From: Clostridia bacterium
GTDB taxonomy: Bacteria > Bacillota > Clostridia > Oscillospirales > CAG-272
Length of the DNA stretch: 64,000 bases
Direction of reading: 5' to 3'
NCBI GenBank assembly: GCA_017461475.1
Contig: JAFTXX010000003.1
Coordinates: forward strand, 43,171-107,170
Part shown: in pieces, positions 11,008-44,263 of the stretch
How positions within the stretch are numbered: the first letter of the stretch is position 1
Layout: every line of letters starts with the position of its first letter
The notes under the pieces: generated by a model
Databases searched by the model: none
The model's input: only the letters and a program-made list of their open reading frames with translations
Told to the model about the DNA's origin: nothing
Made by a program: the position numbers and the translations under genes

Positions 11008-11739
11008 TTACAATACTTTTGACAAAAAGTCCTTGAGTCTCGGGTTTTTCGGATTCGCAAAGAATTCCTCAGGGGGCGCTTCTTCCAGAATCTTACCCTC
11101 GTCCATGAATATTACGCGGTTTGCAACCTCGCGGGCAAAACCCATTTCGTGGGTGACAATAACCATTGTCATGCCGTCGTCCGCAAGAGACTTCATCAGG
11201 TCGAGAACCTCACCGACCATCTCGGGGTCGAGCGCGGAAGTAGGCTCGTCAAACAGCATAACGCGCGGGTTCATTGCGAGCGCACGCGCAATTGCGATAC
11301 GCTGTTTCTGACCGCCCGAGAGTTGCGCGGGGTAAGCGTTTGCTTTGTCGGGGAGTCCGACTTTTTCAAGCAGCTCTTTTGCCTTTGCTTCTACCTCCGC
11401 CTTGCTTTGCTTTAAAAGCTTGATAGGCGCAAGCGTGATGTTTTCCATAATAGAAAGGTGAGGGAAGAGGTTGAAATGCTGGAACACCATGCCCATGTGC
11501 ATGCGGAGTTTGTTAATGTCGCATTTTTTATCGGTTATGAGTTGACCGTCAAAGTATATCTCACCTGCGGAAGGTTCTTCGAGGCGGTTGAGACAGCGGA
11601 GGAAAGTTGACTTGCCGCTACCCGACGGGCCTACGACAACCACTTTTTCACCTTTTGCAATGTGCTGGTCAACACCTTTTAAAACCTTTATCTCGTCGTT
11701 TTCGCCGAAATTCTTGTAAAGATTTTTAACGCTTATCAC
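11008..11739 (-). CDS. Polar amino-acid ABC transporter ATP-binding protein (GlnQ-like)
   Basis: Walker [10 protein letters not shown], signature [15 protein letters not shown], Walker [12 protein letters not shown]. Confidence 0.95.
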
Positions 11740-36250: not shown

Positions 36251-38661
36251 GTTTTACATATCCCAACCGCGCGTGTGCGGCACTCGTTGACATAAACCTT
36301 ACTGTCAATGAGGGTGAATTTGTCACTCTGTGCGGCAAATCGGGTTGCGGAAAAACAACGCTTTTGCGCCTGCTCAAAACTTCGCTTGCGCCGCACGGCA
36401 AGCTTTGTGGCAGTATCGATTTCTGCGGTACATCACTTGCTGACACGGATGCAAGAACACAGGCTTCCAAGATAGGCTTTGTCATGCAGAGCCCCGATAA
36501 CCAAATCGTGACCGATAAGGTGTGGCACGAACTTGCGTTTGGACTTGAAAGCCTCGGATGCCCCACCCCCGAGATACGCACACGCGTGGCTGAGATGGCG
36601 TCATTTTTCGGAATCCAAACATGGTTTCACAAAAGCGTGACCGAACTTTCGGGCGGTCAAAAGCAGCTTTTAAATCTCGCTTCAGTCATGGTTATGCAGC
36701 CGTCAGTGCTTATTTTGGACGAGCCGACAAGCCAACTTGACCCCATAGCCGCCGAAGAGTTTTTGAAAACGCTCGAAAAAATAAATCGCGAACTTGGAAC
36801 AACGGTGATATTGTCTGAGCACCGCTTGGAAGATGCGTTCCCTATATCCGACCGCGTTGTCGTTATAGACAGCGGCAGAATAATTGCGGATGCCGAGCCG
36901 AAGAAGGTCTGCGAGATCTTAAAAACAACAAGGCACGATATGTATGCCGCTTTGCCCGCACCGATACGCATTTACGGCGCTGTTGAGACCGATGCTGCAT
37001 TTCCGCTCACGGTTCGTGAGGGTAGAGGGTGGTTTTTGAAATATGCCGAGACGCATACGCCGAAAACGGACGCAATATTGCCCGAAAACAAGCCGCTTGC
37101 GACCGAGACGGCAGTTGAAATAAATGACGCATGGTTCCGCTATGAAAAAGAACTTCCCGATGTCATAAAAGGTCTCAGCCTAAAGGTGCAAAAAGGGGAA
37201 CTGTTCGCCATCCTCGGCGGCAACGGCACGGGAAAAACCACTGCGCTTTCACTAATAAGCGGTCTTAACACGCCGTATCGCGGAAATGTGCTCATAAAAG
37301 GTAAGTCTGTCGCAGATATCGCCGACTTGTATAACGGTACTCTCGGCGTGCTTCCTCAAAATCCGCAGTGTTTGTTTACAAAAAAGACCGTGCGCGCAGA
37401 CCTTTTTGAAATGACAAATAACGCAGAGCATATTCAAAACATAGCAGAGATCTGCAAAATAGCAGAACTGCTCGACAGCCACCCATACGACCTTTCAGGT
37501 GGTGAACAGCAGCGCGCGGCACTTGCCAAAGTGCTTTTGCTTTCGCCGAGAATTTTGCTGCTCGACGAGCCGACCAAAGGTATGGATGCGCAGTTCAAGG
37601 CGTGCTTTGCGGATATTCTGCAGGATTTAAAGGCAAACGGCGTTACTGTCATAATGGTGTCGCACGATATTGAATTTTGTGCCGAGCATGCCGATAGATG
37701 CGCGATGTTTTTTGACGGCAATATTGCATCAGTAGGCACACCGCGTGAGTTCTTCGCAGGCAAAAACTTTTATACCACCTCTGCCAATCGAATCGTGCGC
37801 GAAAAACTGCCACGCGCCGTGACCGCCGAGGATGTGATACTCGCTCTCGGCGGCAAAGTTGAAAAAAGAGAGCGTGTCCCAAGGCGCATAATTCCGCATG
37901 AAAAAAAAGAGCAACCCCAAAAAACGTTCAAAGAGAATATCCAACAACCGCAAAACAACCGCCGCTTAACGGGGCGCACCCTCGCAGCAATGCTTTTGAT
38001 ACTGCTCGTAATACCGCTCACAATTTTTGTCGGCATTGTCTATCTCGGCGACAGAAAGTATTATTTCATAAGCCTGCTCATCATCCTTGAAACCATGATA
38101 CCGTTTTTCATGGTGTTTGAGGGCAGAAAACCCAAGGCACGCGAACTCGTCGTGATAAGCGTGCTGTGCGCTATAGGCGTAGCAGGCAGAGCCGCGTTTT
38201 TTATGTTGCCGCAGTTCAAACCCGTAACGGCGCTTGTCATTATAGCGGGTGTATGTTTCGGCGGAGAAACAGGATTCCTCGTCGGTGCGGTAACGGGCTT
38301 TGTCTCAAACTTCTTTTTCGGACAAGGTCCGTGGACTCCGTGGCAGATGTTCGCTTTCGGAATTATCGGCTTTATAGCGGGAGTGCTGTTCCGCAAAGGT
38401 ATCTTGCGCAAGACAAAAATATCGCTCTGTATCTTCGGATTTATTGCAACGCTCATAATTTACGGCGGAATAATGAATACCGCATCCGTGCTTATTTGGC
38501 AGGCAACACCCAAAGCCCAAATGTTCCTCTCAGCAAGCACTGTGGGACTGCCGTTCGACCTTATCCACGCAGCATCCACCGCCTTATTCCTATGGCTCGC
38601 CGCAGAGCCCATGATCGATAAGCTCGAAAGAATAAAAGCCAAGTACGGTTTGATAGAATAA
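36223..38661 (+). CDS. Fusion protein: two ECF-type ABC ATPase domains + a C-terminal multi-TM S-component-like domain
   Basis: GTG start overlapping the T gene. Domain 1: GKSGCGKTT, LSGGQKQLLNLA, ILDEPTSQLD. Domain 2: GGNGTGKTT, LSGGEQQRAALA, LLLDEPTKGMD. From ~nt 37930 there are six hydrophobic segments (..GQGPWTPWQMFAFGIIGF..). Confidence 0.85.
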   Translation: MESYKIQNLSFTYPNRACAALVDINLTVNEGEFVTLCGKSGCGKTTLLRLLKTSLAPHGKLCGSIDFCGTSLADTDARTQASKIGFVMQSPDNQIVTDKVWHELAFGLESLGCPTPEIRTRVAEMASFFGIQTWFHKSVTELSGGQKQLLNLASVMVMQPSVLILDEPTSQLDPIAAEEFLKTLEKINRELGTTVILSEHRLEDAFPISDRVVVIDSGRIIADAEPKKVCEILKTTRHDMYAALPAPIRIYGAVETDAAFPLTVREGRGWFLKYAETHTPKTDAILPENKPLATETAVEINDAWFRYEKELPDVIKGLSLKVQKGELFAILGGNGTGKTTALSLISGLNTPYRGNVLIKGKSVADIADLYNGTLGVLPQNPQCLFTKKTVRADLFEMTNNAEHIQNIAEICKIAELLDSHPYDLSGGEQQRAALAKVLLLSPRILLLDEPTKGMDAQFKACFADILQDLKANGVTVIMVSHDIEFCAEHADRCAMFFDGNIASVGTPREFFAGKNFYTTSANRIVREKLPRAVTAEDVILALGGKVEKRERVPRRIIPHEKKEQPQKTFKENIQQPQNNRRLTGRTLAAMLLILLVIPLTIFVGIVYLGDRKYYFISLLIILETMIPFFMVFEGRKPKARELVVISVLCAIGVAGRAAFFMLPQFKPVTALVIIAGVCFGGETGFLVGAVTGFVSNFFFGQGPWTPWQMFAFGIIGFIAGVLFRKGILRKTKISLCIFGFIATLIIYGGIMNTASVLIWQATPKAQMFLSASTVGLPFDLIHAASTALFLWLAAEPMIDKLERIKAKYGLIE

Positions 38662-39288
38662 GGCAGAGAATGAATATCAATTTATTTCTGCATTGCGATT
38701 TTTAAACTCAGTATTTACTGAATATGCTTCATGAAGAGCGTTTTAATGCAACATGGAAGGATATATGTCGCGTGATGTCACTTCCAGGTGTTATTATATG
38801 ACGTCAGCGATTTCATCAAGGGAAAACGGATTAAATGCACTGAGATAGCGGTATCGATTACCAGCATATGTATATGATCTTTACATGCTTTCTACTTGCT
38901 TGTATTCGCCATTATTCCTATGTCCTTCTTTATCTTCCCATATTAGAGCTTTTTCGTACGAGTGTGAATATAACAAAAGGTATGTGGTTTCGCAGGATAA
39001 AAAGATTTTACAAGATTTGCTGAATGCATATCGCAATACTTAATCCTTCTGTTTAATATTAAAGTTTGAATATCGACTCCATTTATATATTAGAAAAAGT
39101 GGTAACGACGTACTCTATTTCTTTTGAAGTTAGGTGCTTAGGAAATTGAACATGAAAACTCCGCTTCAATTTGAAACGGAGTTCTTTTGTGCATTGAAAA
39201 ATAAAATGGTTTCCCACCTTAGACTCAGATTGTTATGGGGTTCTAAAGTGGGAAATCTTCAAAAATTAGAAAATTTTTCATTTACCTA

Positions 39289-39317
39289 TTGACAAGGTAG
39301 GCAATGTGTGTTATGCT
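39289..39317 (+). promoter_or_regulatory. Sigma-A-type promoter (extended -10) for the sulfur-amino-acid operon
   Basis: TTGACA (39289-94), 17 nt spacer, TATAAT-like TATGCT (39312-17) preceded by TGt. Confidence 0.6.
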
Positions 39318-39366
39318 AATACCAACCCAATCGGTAGGTAATTCGAGAAGAAAGGAGAACATAGTC

Positions 39367-39486
39367 ATGAAAGAGTTTAATTCCACCGCTATGATGATGG
39401 GGATGTGCATGCAGACTTGTTGTACGTGCATGATTTCTTGCGTCCAAAAATCCGATATGTTCTCCATCTCAGAAGTAAACGCATAA
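39367..39486 (+). CDS. 39-aa Met/Cys-rich mini-ORF (candidate leader peptide)
   Basis: AAAGGAGAA RBS 7 nt upstream. Peptide is MKEFNSTAMMMGMCMQTCCTCMISCVQKSDMFSISEVNA, with 8 Met + 5 Cys of 39 residues and 11 of 17 codons in 39391..39441. Confidence 0.55.
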   Translation: MKEFNSTAMMMGMCMQTCCTCMISCVQKSDMFSISEVNA

Positions 39487-39521
39487 GCCGCCCCATTTTT
39501 GCGGAACAACATTTGTTTACG

Positions 39522-39561
39522 ATCGGGAGAACTTTATCGGAGTCTCCCGATTTATTATTTT
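39522..39561 (+). terminator. Intrinsic terminator between the mini-ORF and metY (candidate attenuator)
   Basis: atcgggaga (39522-30) pairs with tctcccgat (39543-51), followed by ttattatttt. Confidence 0.7.
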
Positions 39562-39707
39562 GAAGGTAGGTAAAAACCTATGAAAAACTATTTTGAAAAG
39601 ATTGTCGTAGCAAATTTCCGATTCGGTCGAATGTGTCGATGTTGAAGATTAAGAAAAACATAACGAACAGCATCACGTATTTTTAATAATGAAAGGAAAT
39701 CAATATC

Positions 39708-40991
39708 ATGTCTAACTATAAATTTGAAACTTTACAGCTCCATGTAGGTCAGGAAAATCCCGATCCCGCAACCGATGCCCGTGCGGTACCGATTTACGCA
39801 ACCACTTCTTATGTATTCAAGAACTCTGCTCACGCCGCGGCTCGTTTCGGTCTCGCCGATGCCGGTAACATTTACGGCAGACTTACCAATTCCACACAGG
39901 ATGTCCTAGAACAGCGTGTAGCAGCTCTTGAAGGCGGCGTTGCTGCTTTGGCTCTCGCTTCCGGTGCTGCAGCAATTACATATACCCTTGAGGCACTCGG
40001 TCAGAATGGCGGTCACTTCGTGGCACAGAAGACCATTTACGGCGGTAGTTACAATCTGCTGGCACATACTTTACCTAACTTCGGTATTACCGCAAGTTTT
40101 GTCAACATTCACGACCTCGCCGAAGTCGAAGCGGCTATTCAGGATAACACCAGAGCGATATACATTGAAACCCTCGGTAACCCCAACAGCGATATTCCGG
40201 ATATCGACGCACTGGCTTCTCTTGCTCACAAGCACGGTTTGCCCCTCGTAGTAGACAACACCTTCGGTACGCCGTACCTCATCCGTCCTATCGAGCACGG
40301 CGCGGATATCGTGGTACATTCCGCTACCAAGTTTCTCGGCGGTCACGGTACCACACTGGGCGGCGTGATCGTAGACTCCGGTAAATTCGATTGGACTGCA
40401 AGCGGCAAGTATCCAGCAATCGCCGATCCCAATCCCAGCTATCACGGCGTATCCTTTGTGAAAGCAGTCGGTCCTGCGGCGTTTGTAACATATATCCGCG
40501 CTATCCTGCTCCGTGATACCGGTGCTACCATTTCTCCTTTCGCCGCATTCCTGCTCTTACAGGGCATCGAGACTCTGTCTCTACGTCTGGAGCGTCATGC
40601 TGAAAATACCAAGAAGGTTGTCGAATTCCTTGCAAACCACCCGCAAGTTGAAAAGGTCAATCATCCGTCTTTGGCAGATCACCCCGACAACGAGTTGTAT
40701 CAGAAATATTTCCCCAATGGTGGCGGTTCCATCTTCACTTTTGAGATCAAGGGCGGCGTGGCTGAGGCACACAAGTTCATTGACAGCCTGGAAATCTTCT
40801 CTTTGCTCGCCAATGTTGCTGATGTAAAGAGCCTTGTGATCCACCCGGCAACCACCACACACAGTCAGCTTAGTGCTGAGGAGCTTGAGGATCAGGGCAT
40901 TAAGCCCAACACCATTCGTCTTTCCATCGGTACCGAGCATATCGACGATATTCTCGCCGATCTGCAGCGTGGTTTTGACGCAGTAAAGTAA
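39708..40991 (+). CDS. metY: O-acetylhomoserine sulfhydrylase (aminocarboxypropyltransferase)
   Basis: N-terminus [44 protein letters not shown] carries the PLP-binding Lys. 427 aa. Confidence 0.9.
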
Positions 40992-41016
40992 TCGAATCTA
41001 TTTGGAGGTAACATTT

Positions 41017-41949
41017 ATGGCTAATATTTATACATCTGCCGATCAATTGATTGGCAAAACACCTCTCCTTGAACTTACACACATTGAAAAAGCCTTAGGA
41101 TTGAAAGCAAAGGTCGTCGCTAAACTGGAATATTTCAATCCGGCAGGTTCCGTTAAAGACCGTATTGCAAAGGAAATGATTGACGAGGCGGAGGCGAGCG
41201 GAAAGTTGAAGCCCGGTTCTGTTATCATCGAGCCCACCTCCGGCAATACCGGTATCGGTCTTGCGGCGGTTGCTGCTGCCCGCGGCTACAGAATTATTAT
41301 CGTAATGCCCGAAACAATGTCGGTGGAACGCCGTCAACTTATGAAGGCATACGGCGCGGAGCTTGTACTGACCGAAGGTGCTAAAGGTATGAAAGGTGCT
41401 ATTGCAAAGGCGGAAGAACTCGCCGCAGAGACACCCAACAGCTTCATTCCCGGACAGTTTGTAAACCCCGCCAACCCCAAGGCTCACAGAGAAAATACCG
41501 GTCCTGAGATCTTTGAGGATACCGACGGTAATGTGGATATCTTTGTTGCGGGTGTAGGCACCGGCGGTACGGTAACAGGTGTCGGGGAATATCTGAAATC
41601 CAAGAACCCTGCAGTCAAAGTCGTTGCAGTTGAGCCTGCCGCTTCTGCGGTGCTCTCTACCGGTGTTGCCGGTCCTCACAAGATCCAAGGTATCGGCGCA
41701 GGCTTTGTTCCCGATGTACTCAACACCGGCATTTATGACGAGATCATTCCCGTTTCAAATGAGGATGCTTTTGCTACCGGAAAGCTCATCGGCAAAAGTG
41801 AGGGCGTACTCGTAGGCATTTCTTCCGGTGCTGCCGCATTTGCCGCAATTGAACTCGCAAAGCGACCCGAAAACGAAGGAAAAACCATTGTTGTGCTTCT
41901 GCCCGATACCGGTGACAGATATTTATCCACACCGCTGTTTGCTGATTGA
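41017..41949 (+). CDS. cysK: Cysteine synthase A (O-acetylserine sulfhydrylase)
   Basis: GGAGG RBS before the ATG at 41017. [28 protein letters not shown] and GVGTGGT motifs. Confidence 0.9.
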
Positions 41950-42016
41950 TCATCAAGGCTCCGGTACTATTTACTGTATCGGAGCCTTTAGACTTGTTTA
42001 TTGTAGGTGATTTGAA

Positions 42017-42190
42017 ATGTTTGATAACTCACTTTTCAATTCAATCTATAGCCGAACAGATACCGGAGCAATTAAATACAATAATCTTCCTCCAAATACG
42101 ATTCATATGTGGATTGCAGATATGGGTTTCAAATCCCCTCCGGCAGTTACAGATGCGCTCACAAAAGCCGCTTACAAGTACGGCGAATAA
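42017..42190 (+). pseudogene. 57-codon N-terminal remnant of a PatB/MalY-type C-S lyase
   Basis: MFDNSLFNSIYSRTDTGAIKYNNLPPNTIHMWIADMGFKSPPAVTDALTKAAYKYGE* aligns with the N-terminus of the intact paralog at 53332 (..FDSVIDRRNTNSLKY....VLPLWVADMDFRAAQSVLDALHTAV). It stops after 57 aa, against ~390 expected. Confidence 0.55.
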
Positions 42191-42219
42191 ATTATGCAGT
42201 TAATAAAACGGAATGACTT

Positions 42220-43266
42220 ATGAGAAACATCGATTTAATTGAGAAACTAACGGCAGAGAGAAATCTTCCGAATGCGGCGCTAAAATTGCTGATTGAAAGC
42301 AATGAATACGATACGTTTCTCTTCGAAGCGGCGGATAGCAGACGCAAGGAAATCTACGGCGATGAGGTTTACATTCGCGGACTTATTGAGTTTACAAATT
42401 ATTGCCGCAATAACTGTTATTATTGCGGCATACGAAGAGATAATAAAAATGCACAGAGATACCGTTTAAGCAAAGAAGAAATCCTTGCTTGTTGTGAAGA
42501 AGGATATCGGCTTGGTTTTCGTACTTTTGTTTTACAGGGCGGTGAAGATCCGTATTATACAGACACTTTAATCTGTGATATTGTGTCTGAAATACGAAAA
42601 CGTTTTGAGGATTGTGCTATCACGTTATCTCTCGGTGAAAAATCCAAAGAAAGCTATAAAGCGTTCTTTGATGCGGGAGCTAATCGCTATCTGCTTAGGC
42701 ACGAAACCGCAAACGATCCGCACTATCGTAAGCTTCATCCTGACAATATGAGTCTGCAAAACCGAAAACAATGCCTATATAATTTAAAGGACATCGGATA
42801 TCAAGTGGGTTCCGGTTTTATGGTTGGCTCGCCATATCAGACAACCGATACTTTGATACAAGATATTCGTTTCTTGCAGGATTTGCAGCCTGATATGATC
42901 GGAATCGGACCGTATATCACGCATGAAGACACACCGTTCTCTTCTTTTAAAAACGGCAGCATGGCGCTGACTTTACGGCTTATTGCTGTTTTGAGGCTTA
43001 TGTTTCCGTATGCTTTGATTCCGGCAACGACGGCTCTCGGAACGATCCACGCTCAGGGACGTGAACTCGGGTTGAAAGCAGGCGCCAATGTGGTAATGCC
43101 CAACCTTTCGCCGGTCGGTGTACGAAAACTATATGCGCTTTATCAAAATAAAATATGCACCGGAGAGGAAGCTGCACAGTGCCGGGGTTGTCTGGAACGG
43201 CGCGTAAACTCTGCCGGATACCGTATTGTAACGGCAATCGGGAATGCAATGAAGGAGAATAAATAA
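42220..43266 (+). CDS. hydE: HydE-like radical SAM protein
   Basis: IRGLIEFTNYCRNNCYYCGIRRDN, LQGGEDPYY, TLSLGE, RYLLRHETAN, MVGSPYQT, MIGIGPYITHEDTPF, IPATTALGT, GANVVMPNLSP. 348 aa. Confidence 0.75.
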   Translation: MRNIDLIEKLTAERNLPNAALKLLIESNEYDTFLFEAADSRRKEIYGDEVYIRGLIEFTNYCRNNCYYCGIRRDNKNAQRYRLSKEEILACCEEGYRLGFRTFVLQGGEDPYYTDTLICDIVSEIRKRFEDCAITLSLGEKSKESYKAFFDAGANRYLLRHETANDPHYRKLHPDNMSLQNRKQCLYNLKDIGYQVGSGFMVGSPYQTTDTLIQDIRFLQDLQPDMIGIGPYITHEDTPFSSFKNGSMALTLRLIAVLRLMFPYALIPATTALGTIHAQGRELGLKAGANVVMPNLSPVGVRKLYALYQNKICTGEEAAQCRGCLERRVNSAGYRIVTAIGNAMKENK

Positions 43267-43384
43267 AACGCAGATATATCTTGATAATGCAGCGACCACA
43301 AAAATGAGCAAAACAGCAATAGACGCTATGATTCCCTCGGCGGCGGAACGATCATTGCCGGATAACTTTGTAAAGGATTCAATT

Positions 43385-44263
43385 ATGAAACTGACAGAAC
43401 TCTTTAGCAGAAATCAATTATCGCTTTCTTTTGAGGTGTTCCCTCCAAAAAACGAAACAACTTTTGAAAGCGTAAAGCACGCGACGGAAGAGATTGCGAG
43501 ACTGCATCCTTCGTTTATGAGTGTTACATACGGTGCCGGTGGTGGGACAAGCCGATACACTCTTGACATCGCAAAACAAATCAAAGATCTGTATGATGTT
43601 CCCTCTTTAGCGCATTTGACCTGTGTTTCCTCCACAAGGGAAACTGTCCGCGAAAGAATTAGGGACATTAAAAGTGCGGGCATACAGAATGTTATGGCTT
43701 TGCGTGGAGATATCCCCACAGAACTTCAAAATGCAGACCGCAGTCATTGGGATTTCAGGCACGCAATAGAGCTTATTTATGAATTGAAAGAATCAGGGGC
43801 GGATTTTTGCATCGGCGGGGCATGCTATCCCGAAATTCATCCCGAGAGTACAAATCAAAAAGAAGATATTCTGCATCTTAAGGAAAAAGTGGATGCAGGT
43901 TGTGAATTTTTGACGACGCAAATGTTCTTTGACAATAATCTTCTGTATAACTTCCTGTATAAGATCCGTGAAGCCGGAATAACCGTTCCTATAATTCCCG
44001 GTATTATGCCTATTACCAATGCAAATCAAGTAGAAAGAGCGATAAAACTTTCCGGCTCCTTTATGCCCCAGCGATTCAAGAGTCTCGTAGACAAATTCGG
44101 TTCTGACCCTGCGGCTATGAAACAGGCGGGTATTGCGTATGCTACCGATCAGATCATTGATTTGTATGCAAACGGTATTACGGGTGTCCATGTCTATTCT
44201 ATGAACAAGCCGGATGTGGCAGCGAAGATTCAGAGCAATTTGTCAGATATTTTGGGCAAATAA
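43385..44263 (+). CDS. metF: 5,10-methylenetetrahydrofolate reductase
   Basis: AAAGGA RBS before the ATG at 43385. LSFEVFPPK, SVTYGAGG, AHLTC and ALRGD motifs. The track ORF start at 43304 lies in a nifS-like remnant with no RBS. Confidence 0.85.
   Translation: MKLTELFSRNQLSLSFEVFPPKNETTFESVKHATEEIARLHPSFMSVTYGAGGGTSRYTLDIAKQIKDLYDVPSLAHLTCVSSTRETVRERIRDIKSAGIQNVMALRGDIPTELQNADRSHWDFRHAIELIYELKESGADFCIGGACYPEIHPESTNQKEDILHLKEKVDAGCEFLTTQMFFDNNLLYNFLYKIREAGITVPIIPGIMPITNANQVERAIKLSGSFMPQRFKSLVDKFGSDPAAMKQAGIAYATDQIIDLYANGITGVHVYSMNKPDVAAKIQSNLSDILGK

Follow-up and report, generated by a model that had tools for sequence, protein, structure and literature searches.

Two predicted ribosome-read sensors in series in the leader of the metY-cysK operon of a Clostridia bacterium

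How are the methionine genes of a gut Clostridia bacterium regulated when the leader of its metY-cysK operon, approximately 420 nt long, carries two tiny open reading frames (ORF1 and ORF2)? Leader-peptide attenuation of the trp/his/leu type is well established, and the Met and Cys genes of Firmicutes are usually under the control of S-box, T-box or CymR; to our knowledge, methionine has never been among the amino acids of textbook leader-peptide attenuation. We analyzed this leader in a window of 64,000 nt (assembly GCA_017461475.1, contig JAFTXX010000003.1, positions 43,171-107,170, forward strand), whose numbering is used throughout; genes, ORFs, promoter and RNA elements given below lie on its plus strand. 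A first-pass annotation of the window had proposed translation-coupled attenuation that reads Met and Cys together, a proposal favored by the conservation of the ORFs, by compensatory changes in the predicted helices and by the attachment of the element to methionine operons. We propose that the leader probably contains two ribosome-read sensors in series, with ORF1 acting as a transcription attenuator and ORF2, downstream of it, as a translational attenuator. Comparison with related sequences is what identifies both ORFs, both sets of predicted helices, the selection on the ORF2 peptide and the link to methionine genes.

The region 39150-39750 was compared with Rfam at E-values up to 10, and no match had an E-value below 0.46, all being far below the gathering threshold. 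S-box, T-box or other riboswitches, the finding that the first-pass annotation had set against its own proposal, were likewise not detected with Rfam upstream of metY, either here or in 38 related loci. Pfam and NCBIfam gave no match for ORF1, ORF2 or three of their relatives, nor any homology of ORF2 to described arrest-peptide families. Neither a Met-codon leader nor the ORF2 motif (FRFGRM/NFRFGRM) was found in the open-access literature and bioRxiv, subscription journals being outside this search, and attenuators based on Cys codons have already been described, both predicted and tested (PMC1262725, 10.1101/834739, PMC8632094). Thus, within ribosome-mediated attenuation, the predicted novelty would be the Met specificity, the conserved sensor peptide and the tandem layout.

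ORF1, together with its Shine-Dalgarno (SD) sequence, occupies positions 39352-39486 and encodes the 39-codon peptide MKEFNSTAMMMGMCMQTCCTCMISCVQKSDMFSISEVNA. The ORF and its ribosome-binding site had been noted before and are present, but the true coding coordinates are 39367-39486 (stop TAA at 39484-86), one base earlier than had been implied; the SD sequence AAGGAG (39352-57) is located 9 nt 5' of the ATG. Codons 9-25 (39391-39441) form the candidate regulatory run M9 M10 M11 G M C M Q T C C T C M I S C, in which 11 of the 17 codons are indeed Met or Cys, as had been counted earlier. A profile search with the alignment as query retrieved at least 49 homologous peptide clusters, all of them unnamed, with the consensus MKKsGFTt.MMMEMCMWTC.MCMtFCAfISDMFSISkaKh.AA. 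Met and Cys make up 19.1% and 9.1% of the residues in 45 of these peptides; the Met columns are the best conserved (41-45 of 45 peptides), and the Cys columns are kept in 29-41 of 45. ATG triplets within the family are distributed over frames 0, 1 and 2 as 113, 5 and 2, and both the SD sequence and the ATG align in all 17 leaders of the alignment used for the RNA analysis. When 80 metY loci were taken, one genome per species, ORF1-like Met/Cys-rich ORFs were present in a subset of the closest relatives.

Since the energy of the leader fold and its promoter and terminator counts are unremarkable, the case for an attenuator rests on comparison with relatives, where the evidence is strong. Base pairs were counted column by column in an alignment of 17 distinct ORF1 leaders (A3) and compared with 500 shuffles, because the G-rich arms of the terminator can pair with many pyrimidine-rich strings. 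The intrinsic terminator extends over 39521-39561, with the stem at 39521-39552 and a U-rich tract up to 39561: GAUCGGGAGA (39521-30) pairs with UCUCCCGAUU (39543-52), enclosing an inner 4-bp stem and followed by UUUAUUAUUUU, giving a hairpin of 10+4 bp with a computed energy of -17.2 kcal/mol. In the alignment, 92% of its cells are paired, with 6 compensatory pairs, and 0-1 of 500 shuffles were as good. A terminator was reported in 21 of 23 ORF1-type leaders, and those of L001 and L087 were recovered by a separate search. The competing antiterminator uses as its 5' strand the segment UCCGAUA-U-GUUCUCC (39451-39468), hereafter segment 2. Positions 39451-65 pair with 39526-41, which comprise the 5' arm and loop of the terminator, in two 7-bp blocks of -17.3 kcal/mol, equal to the terminator. 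The 17 leaders show 93% paired cells and 4 compensatory pairs, clear examples being L034, L161 and L164; 1-2 of 500 shuffles were as good, and sliding the register as a control lowered the pairing to 31-61%. The terminator and the two-block antiterminator had both been proposed from the window sequence, and the comparison upholds them.

A third helix would connect these structures with the regulatory codons. In the RNAalifold consensus, the Met codons GAUGGGG (39396-402; GAUGG(A/G)G in the family) pair with CUCCAUC (39462-68), which closes segment 2 on its 3' side, so that this stretch is shared by the antiterminator region and the Met-codon helix. This helix between segments 1 and 2 (1:2 helix) is paired in 80% of the cells, and it is extended by an inner hairpin between the two MCM stretches, AUGUGCAUGC (39403-12) with GUACGUGCAU (39422-31). 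In the family, the hairpin of AUGUGCAUGC with GYAUGUGCAU is 93.5% paired and varies little, which makes its shuffle test uninformative. The Met codons would therefore lie inside segment 1, as predicted for an arrangement of the trp type. Within the region enclosed by the antiterminator (39475-39520), helper helices are formed by GUAAAC (39475-80) with GUUUAC (39515-20) and, adjoining the ORF1 stop, by CCGC (39488-91) with GCGG (39501-04), the latter with 87% paired cells and 3 compensatory pairs, a result equalled by 10 of 500 shuffles. Two other partners of segment 2 were considered. A helix with the ORF1 SD region dominates the minimum free energy (MFE) structure of the window, and we keep it only as a possible auxiliary helix, not as the anti-antiterminator; capture by GCGGAA, the 3' arm of the stop-proximal hairpin, gave 5 bp by eye, is not kept in L161 and L164, and was rejected.

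Folding under constraints yielded the terminator for the free leader RNA. With a lead ribosome on M13-C18 and a second one on the SD and AUG, the antiterminator formed (14/14) and the terminator did not (0/10), and a stall as late as M22 gave the terminator again. The first-pass annotation had doubted its own register, given that the ORF1 stop comes 19 nt after the antiterminator arm. This doubt is largely resolved by the consensus helix on the Met codons, itself weak in covariation: a ribosome that has moved past would let the 1:2 helix re-form, and one on the stop would sit in the loop that the antiterminator must close, over the helper helices, so that the position of the stop is no obstacle. 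L001 (2570-3003) and protein P0047 represent frameshifted ORF1 variants, in which a different frame (..FVRLFPIYSPSQRQIT) is used for the C-terminal half. Segment 2 nevertheless keeps its nucleotides, also in L001, which identifies it as an RNA signal rather than a peptide signal.

ORF2 lies between the terminator and metY (39563-39645 with its SD sequence AAGGTAGGT at 39563-71; coding 39580-39645) and encodes MKNYFEKIVVANFRFGRMCRC. It had entered the first-pass annotation only as a side remark, and the comparison reveals it to be the more widespread and the more unusual element of the two. Its Arg-Met pair is encoded by the invariant CGA (39628-30) and by AUG (39631-33), after which come UGU CGA UGU UGA. 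The core motif of the family is F-x-x-L-[VLI]-R-x-N-F-R-F-G-R-M, and in a broader version F-x-x-L-[VLI]-R-x-N-[FY]-R-[FYCN]-G-R-M. In many of the 80 loci, metY is preceded by an upstream ORF (uORF) whose last residues are ..NFRFGRM, an unbiased scan of metagenome contigs for the codons of N-F-R-F-G-R-M plus TG returned at least 120 loci, and a profile search added 286 more ORF2-related clusters, every one unnamed. The hexamer CGAATG, an in-frame Arg CGA followed by Met AUG, is found in 53 of 81 metY leaders, against an expectation of approximately 0.1 per leader.

The pattern of substitutions in the motif indicates what is being conserved. Codon-position entropy is 0.63, 0.44 and 1.24 for the first, second and third positions. 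Of 89 sequences, 88 keep Arg at position -9, with AGA, CGG, CGC, CGT, CGA and AGG all in use, and several synonymous codons also serve at Leu(-11) (five or six codons), Arg(-5) (six) and Gly(-3) (four). By this codon evidence, the ORF2 motif is clearly under purifying selection at the level of the peptide, independently of RNA sequence. In sharp contrast, all 31 loci chosen independently of the ORF2 sequence (31 of 31) use CGA for Arg(-2). After Arg-Met, 23 of 88 ORF2s stop directly, mostly at UGA, and the remainder continue into a tail that is 36.5% Cys (for example CRC or CRCCI); the N-terminus and the tail vary freely in length and sequence.

These patterns bear on the alternative that the conserved elements are RNA or DNA signals (a riboswitch-like RNA, a protein-bound RNA or transcription-factor palindromes) and the ORFs incidental to them. 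Conservation at the nucleotide level does exist, in segment 2 of L001, in CGAAUG and in UCCCGGGCA of a family with longer leaders described below, and the palindrome TACCTATTGACAAGGTAGG over the -35 box recurs in relatives, some of which have genes for Rrf2-family regulators nearby. Nevertheless, the six-codon Arg and Leu positions of ORF2 vary while the amino acid is kept, ATG triplets of ORF1 fall nearly all in frame 0, SD sequences and start codons are conserved, and no Rfam family matches. An operator at the promoter, possible in addition, would leave the ORFs, the terminator and the antiterminator unexplained. We consider this alternative quite unlikely.

Some variants of ORF2 deserve mention. 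Several MFE structures contained a small hairpin in the codons K-L-V-R-A (GCUY..RGAGC), which we do not regard as established because its register shifts between loci and all six codons are used at Arg(-9). In the metagenome loci L184 and L197, ORF2 (MNLKFIELLRSNFRFGRMC...) has no stop and runs in frame into metY, so initiation at ORF2 would yield a MetY with an N-terminal extension of 38 residues. ORF2-type uORFs also precede metY in two bins labelled as spirochaetes: in L049 (a Treponema sp. metagenome-assembled genome, MAG) the sequence MKFYFEKLVRQNFRYGRM.. has CGC as its last Arg codon, and in L075 (a Spirochaetaceae MAG) that codon of MTEYFEKLVRENFRYGVM.. is replaced by GUC. These two may reflect horizontal transfer or errors of binning.

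The 3' coding part of ORF2, AAU UUC CGA UUC GGU CGA AUG UGU (39613-39636), is a putative anti-SD strand, and its predicted target is the metY SD region GAAAGGAAAU (39691-39700) together with the start codon at 39708-10 (39691-39710 in all). In the MFE structure of the window, AUUUCC (39614-19) pairs with GGAAAU (39695-700), and in that of L012 the end of ORF2, CUUCCGUUUCGGCCGAAUGUG, pairs with CACAUCGACCGAAAGGAG in the SD region of the next gene. The 6 bp of AUUUCC with GGAAAU alone were discarded as the SD mask, being too short and broken in L003, in favor of a longer imperfect helix. Duplexes between the end of ORF2 and the SD region have a mean energy of -14.5 kcal/mol for native pairs, -12.4 kcal/mol for permuted partners (p = 7e-5) and -8.9/-9.8 kcal/mol for shuffled strands. 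Over 98 loci, the unpaired probability of the SD was 0.39 in the free RNA, 0.60 with a ribosome on Arg-Met and 0.57 when the 3' end of ORF2 was shuffled (p about 1e-13); for the metY SD of the window, the probability was 0.37 in the free RNA and 0.79 once a ribosome occupied Arg-Met. In addition, the synonymous Asn codons AAU and AAC covary with AGGAAA and AGGAAG in the SD region (28:2 versus 6:6, p = 0.004).

In other lineages the same sensor is followed by a different output. There, CGA-AUG is separated by exactly 5 nt from CUCCCGGRCA...AUGGC, the predicted 5' strand of an antiterminator, which opposes a terminator of the form GCCAU-UU-UGYCCGGGAG...CUCCCGG-U(n). One group, here called hybrid, carries the full ..LLRSNFRCGRM peptide ahead of the antiterminator strand (P0134, on more than 100 contigs, and P0162). 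Another, the long family, has Met-Met-Cys-Cys ahead of CGA-AUG in a leader with the pattern ..M-M-C-C-R(CGA)-M-x-x-S-R-A-x-x-M-A-G.., approximately 180-260 nt upstream of metY. Its S-R-A and M-A-G codons are invariant (UCC CGG GCA and AUG GCC GGG) because they form the antiterminator strand against the GCCCGGGAG..CUCCCGGG-U(n) terminator. The long family comprises L040, L042, L043, L045, L046, L048, L051, L054-L056, L062, L071, L072, L079 and L080, and its hosts are Lachnospiraceae, Ruminococcus and Negativicutes (Anaerovibrio lipolyticus). The comparison thus points to one sensor, CGA-AUG with its peptide, joined to two output platforms. In both, the activating conformation would stay available while a ribosome is held with its P site on CGA and its A site on AUG, so stalling would switch the genes on, as fits a signal of shortage.

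Conservation of a peptide at a fixed putative stall site also suggests an arrest peptide that senses a ligand, in the manner of TnaC or SpeFL: arrest at Arg-Met would be independent of Met-tRNA and would act through the same RNA outputs, and the ligand could be a metabolite of the methionine pathway or a starvation signal. The approximately 12 conserved C-terminal residues match the length of the exit tunnel, the ORF2s that stop right after Arg-Met resemble TnaC and SpeFL, the sensor is reused with two output platforms, and the hybrid forms have one Met codon only before the antiterminator strand. Against this, stalling would turn the genes on, so methionine or S-adenosylmethionine (SAM) as inducer would give the wrong sign and a ligand that signals shortage has to be postulated; moreover, Cys-rich tails and Met-Met-Cys-Cys before CGA-AUG are what a sensor of charged tRNAs predicts. 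We regard ligand-sensing arrest as unlikely.

A broader reading, which we hold tentatively and give somewhat less than even weight, is that ORF2 represents a new and widespread class of regulatory nascent peptides in gut Clostridia and their relatives, replacing S-box and T-box on the methionine regulon. Together, the peptide held in the tunnel, an obligatory CGA occupying the P site and an AUG occupying the A site would make a single Met codon a sensitive gauge of methionine supply; alternatively, the module would bind a metabolite. In either case the sensor would be combined, in a riboswitch-like manner, with an SD mask or with a terminator/antiterminator.

The genes that follow the element are in agreement with a role in methionine supply. 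In the window these are metY (39708-40991), of the O-acetylhomoserine sulfhydrylase family (PF01053, 5.8e-133), and cysK (approximately 41017-41949; PALP, 8.6e-78). The complete cassette, consisting of the palindromic promoter, ORF1, the terminator and ORF2, precedes metY-cysK in the window, L087 and L094, metY-metQ-metN in L089 and L090, metY with permease genes in L091, and the metQ-metN-metI transporter alone in L081, L083 and L085. Its presence at operons for both synthesis and uptake is most simply explained by a methionine-responsive regulator. Among the 120 listed matches to the ORF2 pattern, metY, metQ or metN lies downstream in 110 (MetY in 88, NlpA/MetQ lipoprotein in 18 and MetN ATPase in 4), and the other 10 reach the contig end or a short unclassified next ORF; two of these 10, L100 and L168, are without the uORF. 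An ORF1-type leader is present in only 8 of the 96 distinct upstream regions among these listed matches, most of which have a TTGACA box 50-110 nt 5' of ORF2. L002, whose MetY is 96% identical to that of the window, keeps ORF2 and is without ORF1 and terminator, implying that the first stage is a module that can be gained or lost.

Either ORF might instead encode a small protein that acts in trans, as a metal- or sulfur-binding peptide, a precursor of a peptide made by the ribosome and modified after translation (RiPP), or a modulator of MetY or the transporter. Both ORFs are conserved together with ribosome-binding sites, the high Cys and Met content of ORF1 recalls that of some metal-binding peptides, and trans functions are known for some leader peptides (peTrpL). 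However, the cassettes have only methionine genes as neighbors, with no modification or export genes close by; L001 and P0047 keep the nucleotides of ORF1's C-terminal half but read them in a different frame, the N-terminus and tail of ORF2 are free in length and sequence, and both ORFs overlap covarying RNA helices. A trans-acting function is, in our judgment, very improbable.

Returning to the two sensors in series, we infer from sequence that ribosomes stall, why they do so, in which direction this regulates the genes, and what the peptide and CGA contribute; the scheme would be as follows. Transcription would start near 39324, and ORF1 would be translated behind the polymerase. If Met-tRNA or Cys-tRNA is scarce, the ribosome would stall within 39391-39441 and cover segment 1 (the Met codons and the MCM..MCM hairpin), with queued ribosomes covering the SD region. 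Segment 2 (39451-65), thereby freed, would pair with the 5' arm and loop of the terminator (39526-41), and the resulting antiterminator would allow the polymerase to read through. Under good supply the ribosome would reach the stop at 39484, and segment 2 would be covered, or else pair again with segment 1 or with the SD region; the terminator (39521-52) would form and transcription would end. In read-through transcripts, the last codons of ORF2 (AAU UUC CGA UUC GGU CGA AUG UG) would pair with the metY SD region, until a ribosome whose P site is on CGA and whose A site is on AUG, or one at the later Cys codons, holds that strand and exposes the metY ribosome-binding site. Sensitivity to Met-tRNA would arise from the slowing of a single Met step by the nascent peptide F..L[VLI]R.NFRFGR and by the invariant CGA, proposed to act in this way because I:A wobble decoding of CGA is poor.

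Several considerations weigh against this scheme. As a single sequence, the leader does not fold exceptionally (z = -1.06), and the RNAduplex energy of the antiterminator was not significant against shuffles (mean z = -0.5). The covariation tests are uncorrected for phylogeny, and the ORF1 set comprises only 17 sequences; covariation in the 1:2 helix is weak (8-19 of 500 shuffles as good), and the helix of the ORF1 SD with segment 2, 82% paired, does not covary above chance (179-413 of 500 shuffles as good, depending on the measure). When only the lead ribosome is masked, the terminator stays, since the ORF1 SD pairs with segment 2; in the window the antiterminator wins only with the SD and AUG also occupied. 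At the second stage, ORF2 masks the SD only moderately on average, and in some loci (L081, L083) not at all. A plain hunger-codon leader would not need the conserved ORF2 peptide, so part of the mechanism is still missing, and methionine starvation also limits the initiator tRNA, which complicates any sensor based on Met codons. Finally, every functional step is derived from sequence.

Upstream of ORF1, the promoter region (39283-39317) contains TTGACA (39289-94), a 17-nt spacer with TG at its end, and TATGCT (39312-17). This is the near-consensus promoter described in the first-pass annotation, at the same place and with 10 of 12 matches, and it is the best promoter-like site within 38600-42300, and the numbers of promoters and terminators in the region equal those of shuffled sequence. 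With the promoter at 39289-39317, the ATG at 39304 would not be part of the transcript, being upstream of it. The -35 box is contained in a perfect inverted repeat, TACCTA TTGACAAGG TAGG (39283-39301), a 19-mer that occurs once in the window; the same palindromic promoter is common to all relatives of the cassette. A second inverted repeat, ACCNAA-N-GGTAGGT (ACCNAA..GGTAGGTAA; 39324-39342, plus strand), begins at approximately +1, close to the 5' end of the transcript. It is kept in the leader alignment A1 and in other cassette loci, with a covarying version, CCAACC..GGTTGG, in L220 (2925-2975), and may form a stem-loop at the 5' end or serve as a second half-site of an operator. Together, the two repeats could be operators for a transcription factor of the methionine regulon, or could provide a protective 5' stem-loop. 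Rrf2 regulator genes are located close to L087 and L216-219.

Neither ORF1 nor ORF2 has a second copy elsewhere in the window. A second exact ATGTGCATG is present at 11495-11503 on the plus strand, where 0.58 would be expected by chance. The only Rfam matches at or above the gathering score in the whole window, both far from the leader, are a cobalamin riboswitch (RF00174; 27201-27425, 59.8 bits, E = 2.7e-12) and a Gut-1 RNA (RF01706; 18556-18625, 53.8 bits versus a gathering score of 50), the latter being consistent with an origin in gut Clostridia. Approximately 270 nt after cysK, genes for a radical SAM protein and for a methylenetetrahydrofolate reductase (PF02219) occupy 42220-44263 and may extend the methionine/one-carbon theme of the locus.

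On these sequence comparisons, a large group of gut Clostridia appears to run its methionine genes by ribosome stalling. If this is true, ORF2 would be a new example of a sensor tuned by its nascent chain together with its choice of codons, and would offer a short, easily mutated system to study how a single hunger codon becomes sensitive. More than 300 clusters now named "hypothetical protein" would then receive a new annotation, as methionine-regulon leader peptides in abundant gut and rumen bacteria.

Among known systems, ORF1 resembles trpL, hisL, leuL, pheL and thrL in being short, with clustered codons for the regulated amino acids and a position before their genes, and in a leader with a terminator, an overlapping antiterminator and, as predicted here, an upstream competing helix that would include the regulatory codons. 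It differs from this type in reading Met (7 in the window) plus Cys, in that its Met/Cys codons are self-complementary (AUGUGCAU) and build part of the structure, in its host, a member of the Clostridia where S-box and T-box are usual, and in the second uORF sensor downstream.

The closest parallel to the proposed function of ORF2 are the polycysteine short ORFs of mycobacteria, where, in a tested mechanism, stalled ribosomes block the duplex that hides the next ribosome-binding site (Canestrari et al., 10.1101/834739). In that "Cys ribulon", as here, the mechanism would be similar and the same kind of uORF is placed on several operons of one pathway (10.1101/834739). The mycobacterial uORFs, in contrast, are leaderless, have a plain Cys tract and belong to another phylum, whereas ORF2 has its own SD sequence, an invariant CGA with a single Met codon, a peptide of approximately 12 residues and Cys codons after it, and is also coupled to terminators. 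ORF2 would therefore work like these attenuators but is not a member of their class. The uORFC-8-2 motif of cysS in Rhodobacterales is a predicted ribosome-mediated attenuator, in which a stem contains tandem Cys codons and a terminator comes next (Brewer et al. 2021, PMC8632094); unlike the present leader, it is restricted to Cys, precedes a tRNA synthetase gene in alpha-proteobacteria, and has neither a conserved peptide nor a second stage.

With SecM, MifM, TnaC, SpeFL and ErmCL, ORF2 shares a conserved C-terminal peptide of tunnel length, a fixed candidate stall site and an RNA rearrangement downstream that is set by the position of the ribosome, and many ORF2s stop after the motif as TnaC and SpeFL do. 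It has no sequence similarity to them, its proposed signal is the supply of an amino acid, and its arrest is putative. In ermC and cat, a ribosome stalled in the leader ORF melts the hairpin that masks the SD of the downstream gene; the principle of SD unmasking is the same, but the trigger there is a ribosome-bound antibiotic and not amino-acid supply. Lastly, the S-box (SAM-I) and the Met T-box resemble the present system in their target genes (metY, cysK and metNIQ) and in their terminator/antiterminator output, with the difference that the sensor here would be a translated ORF rather than an aptamer or a tRNA-binding leader.

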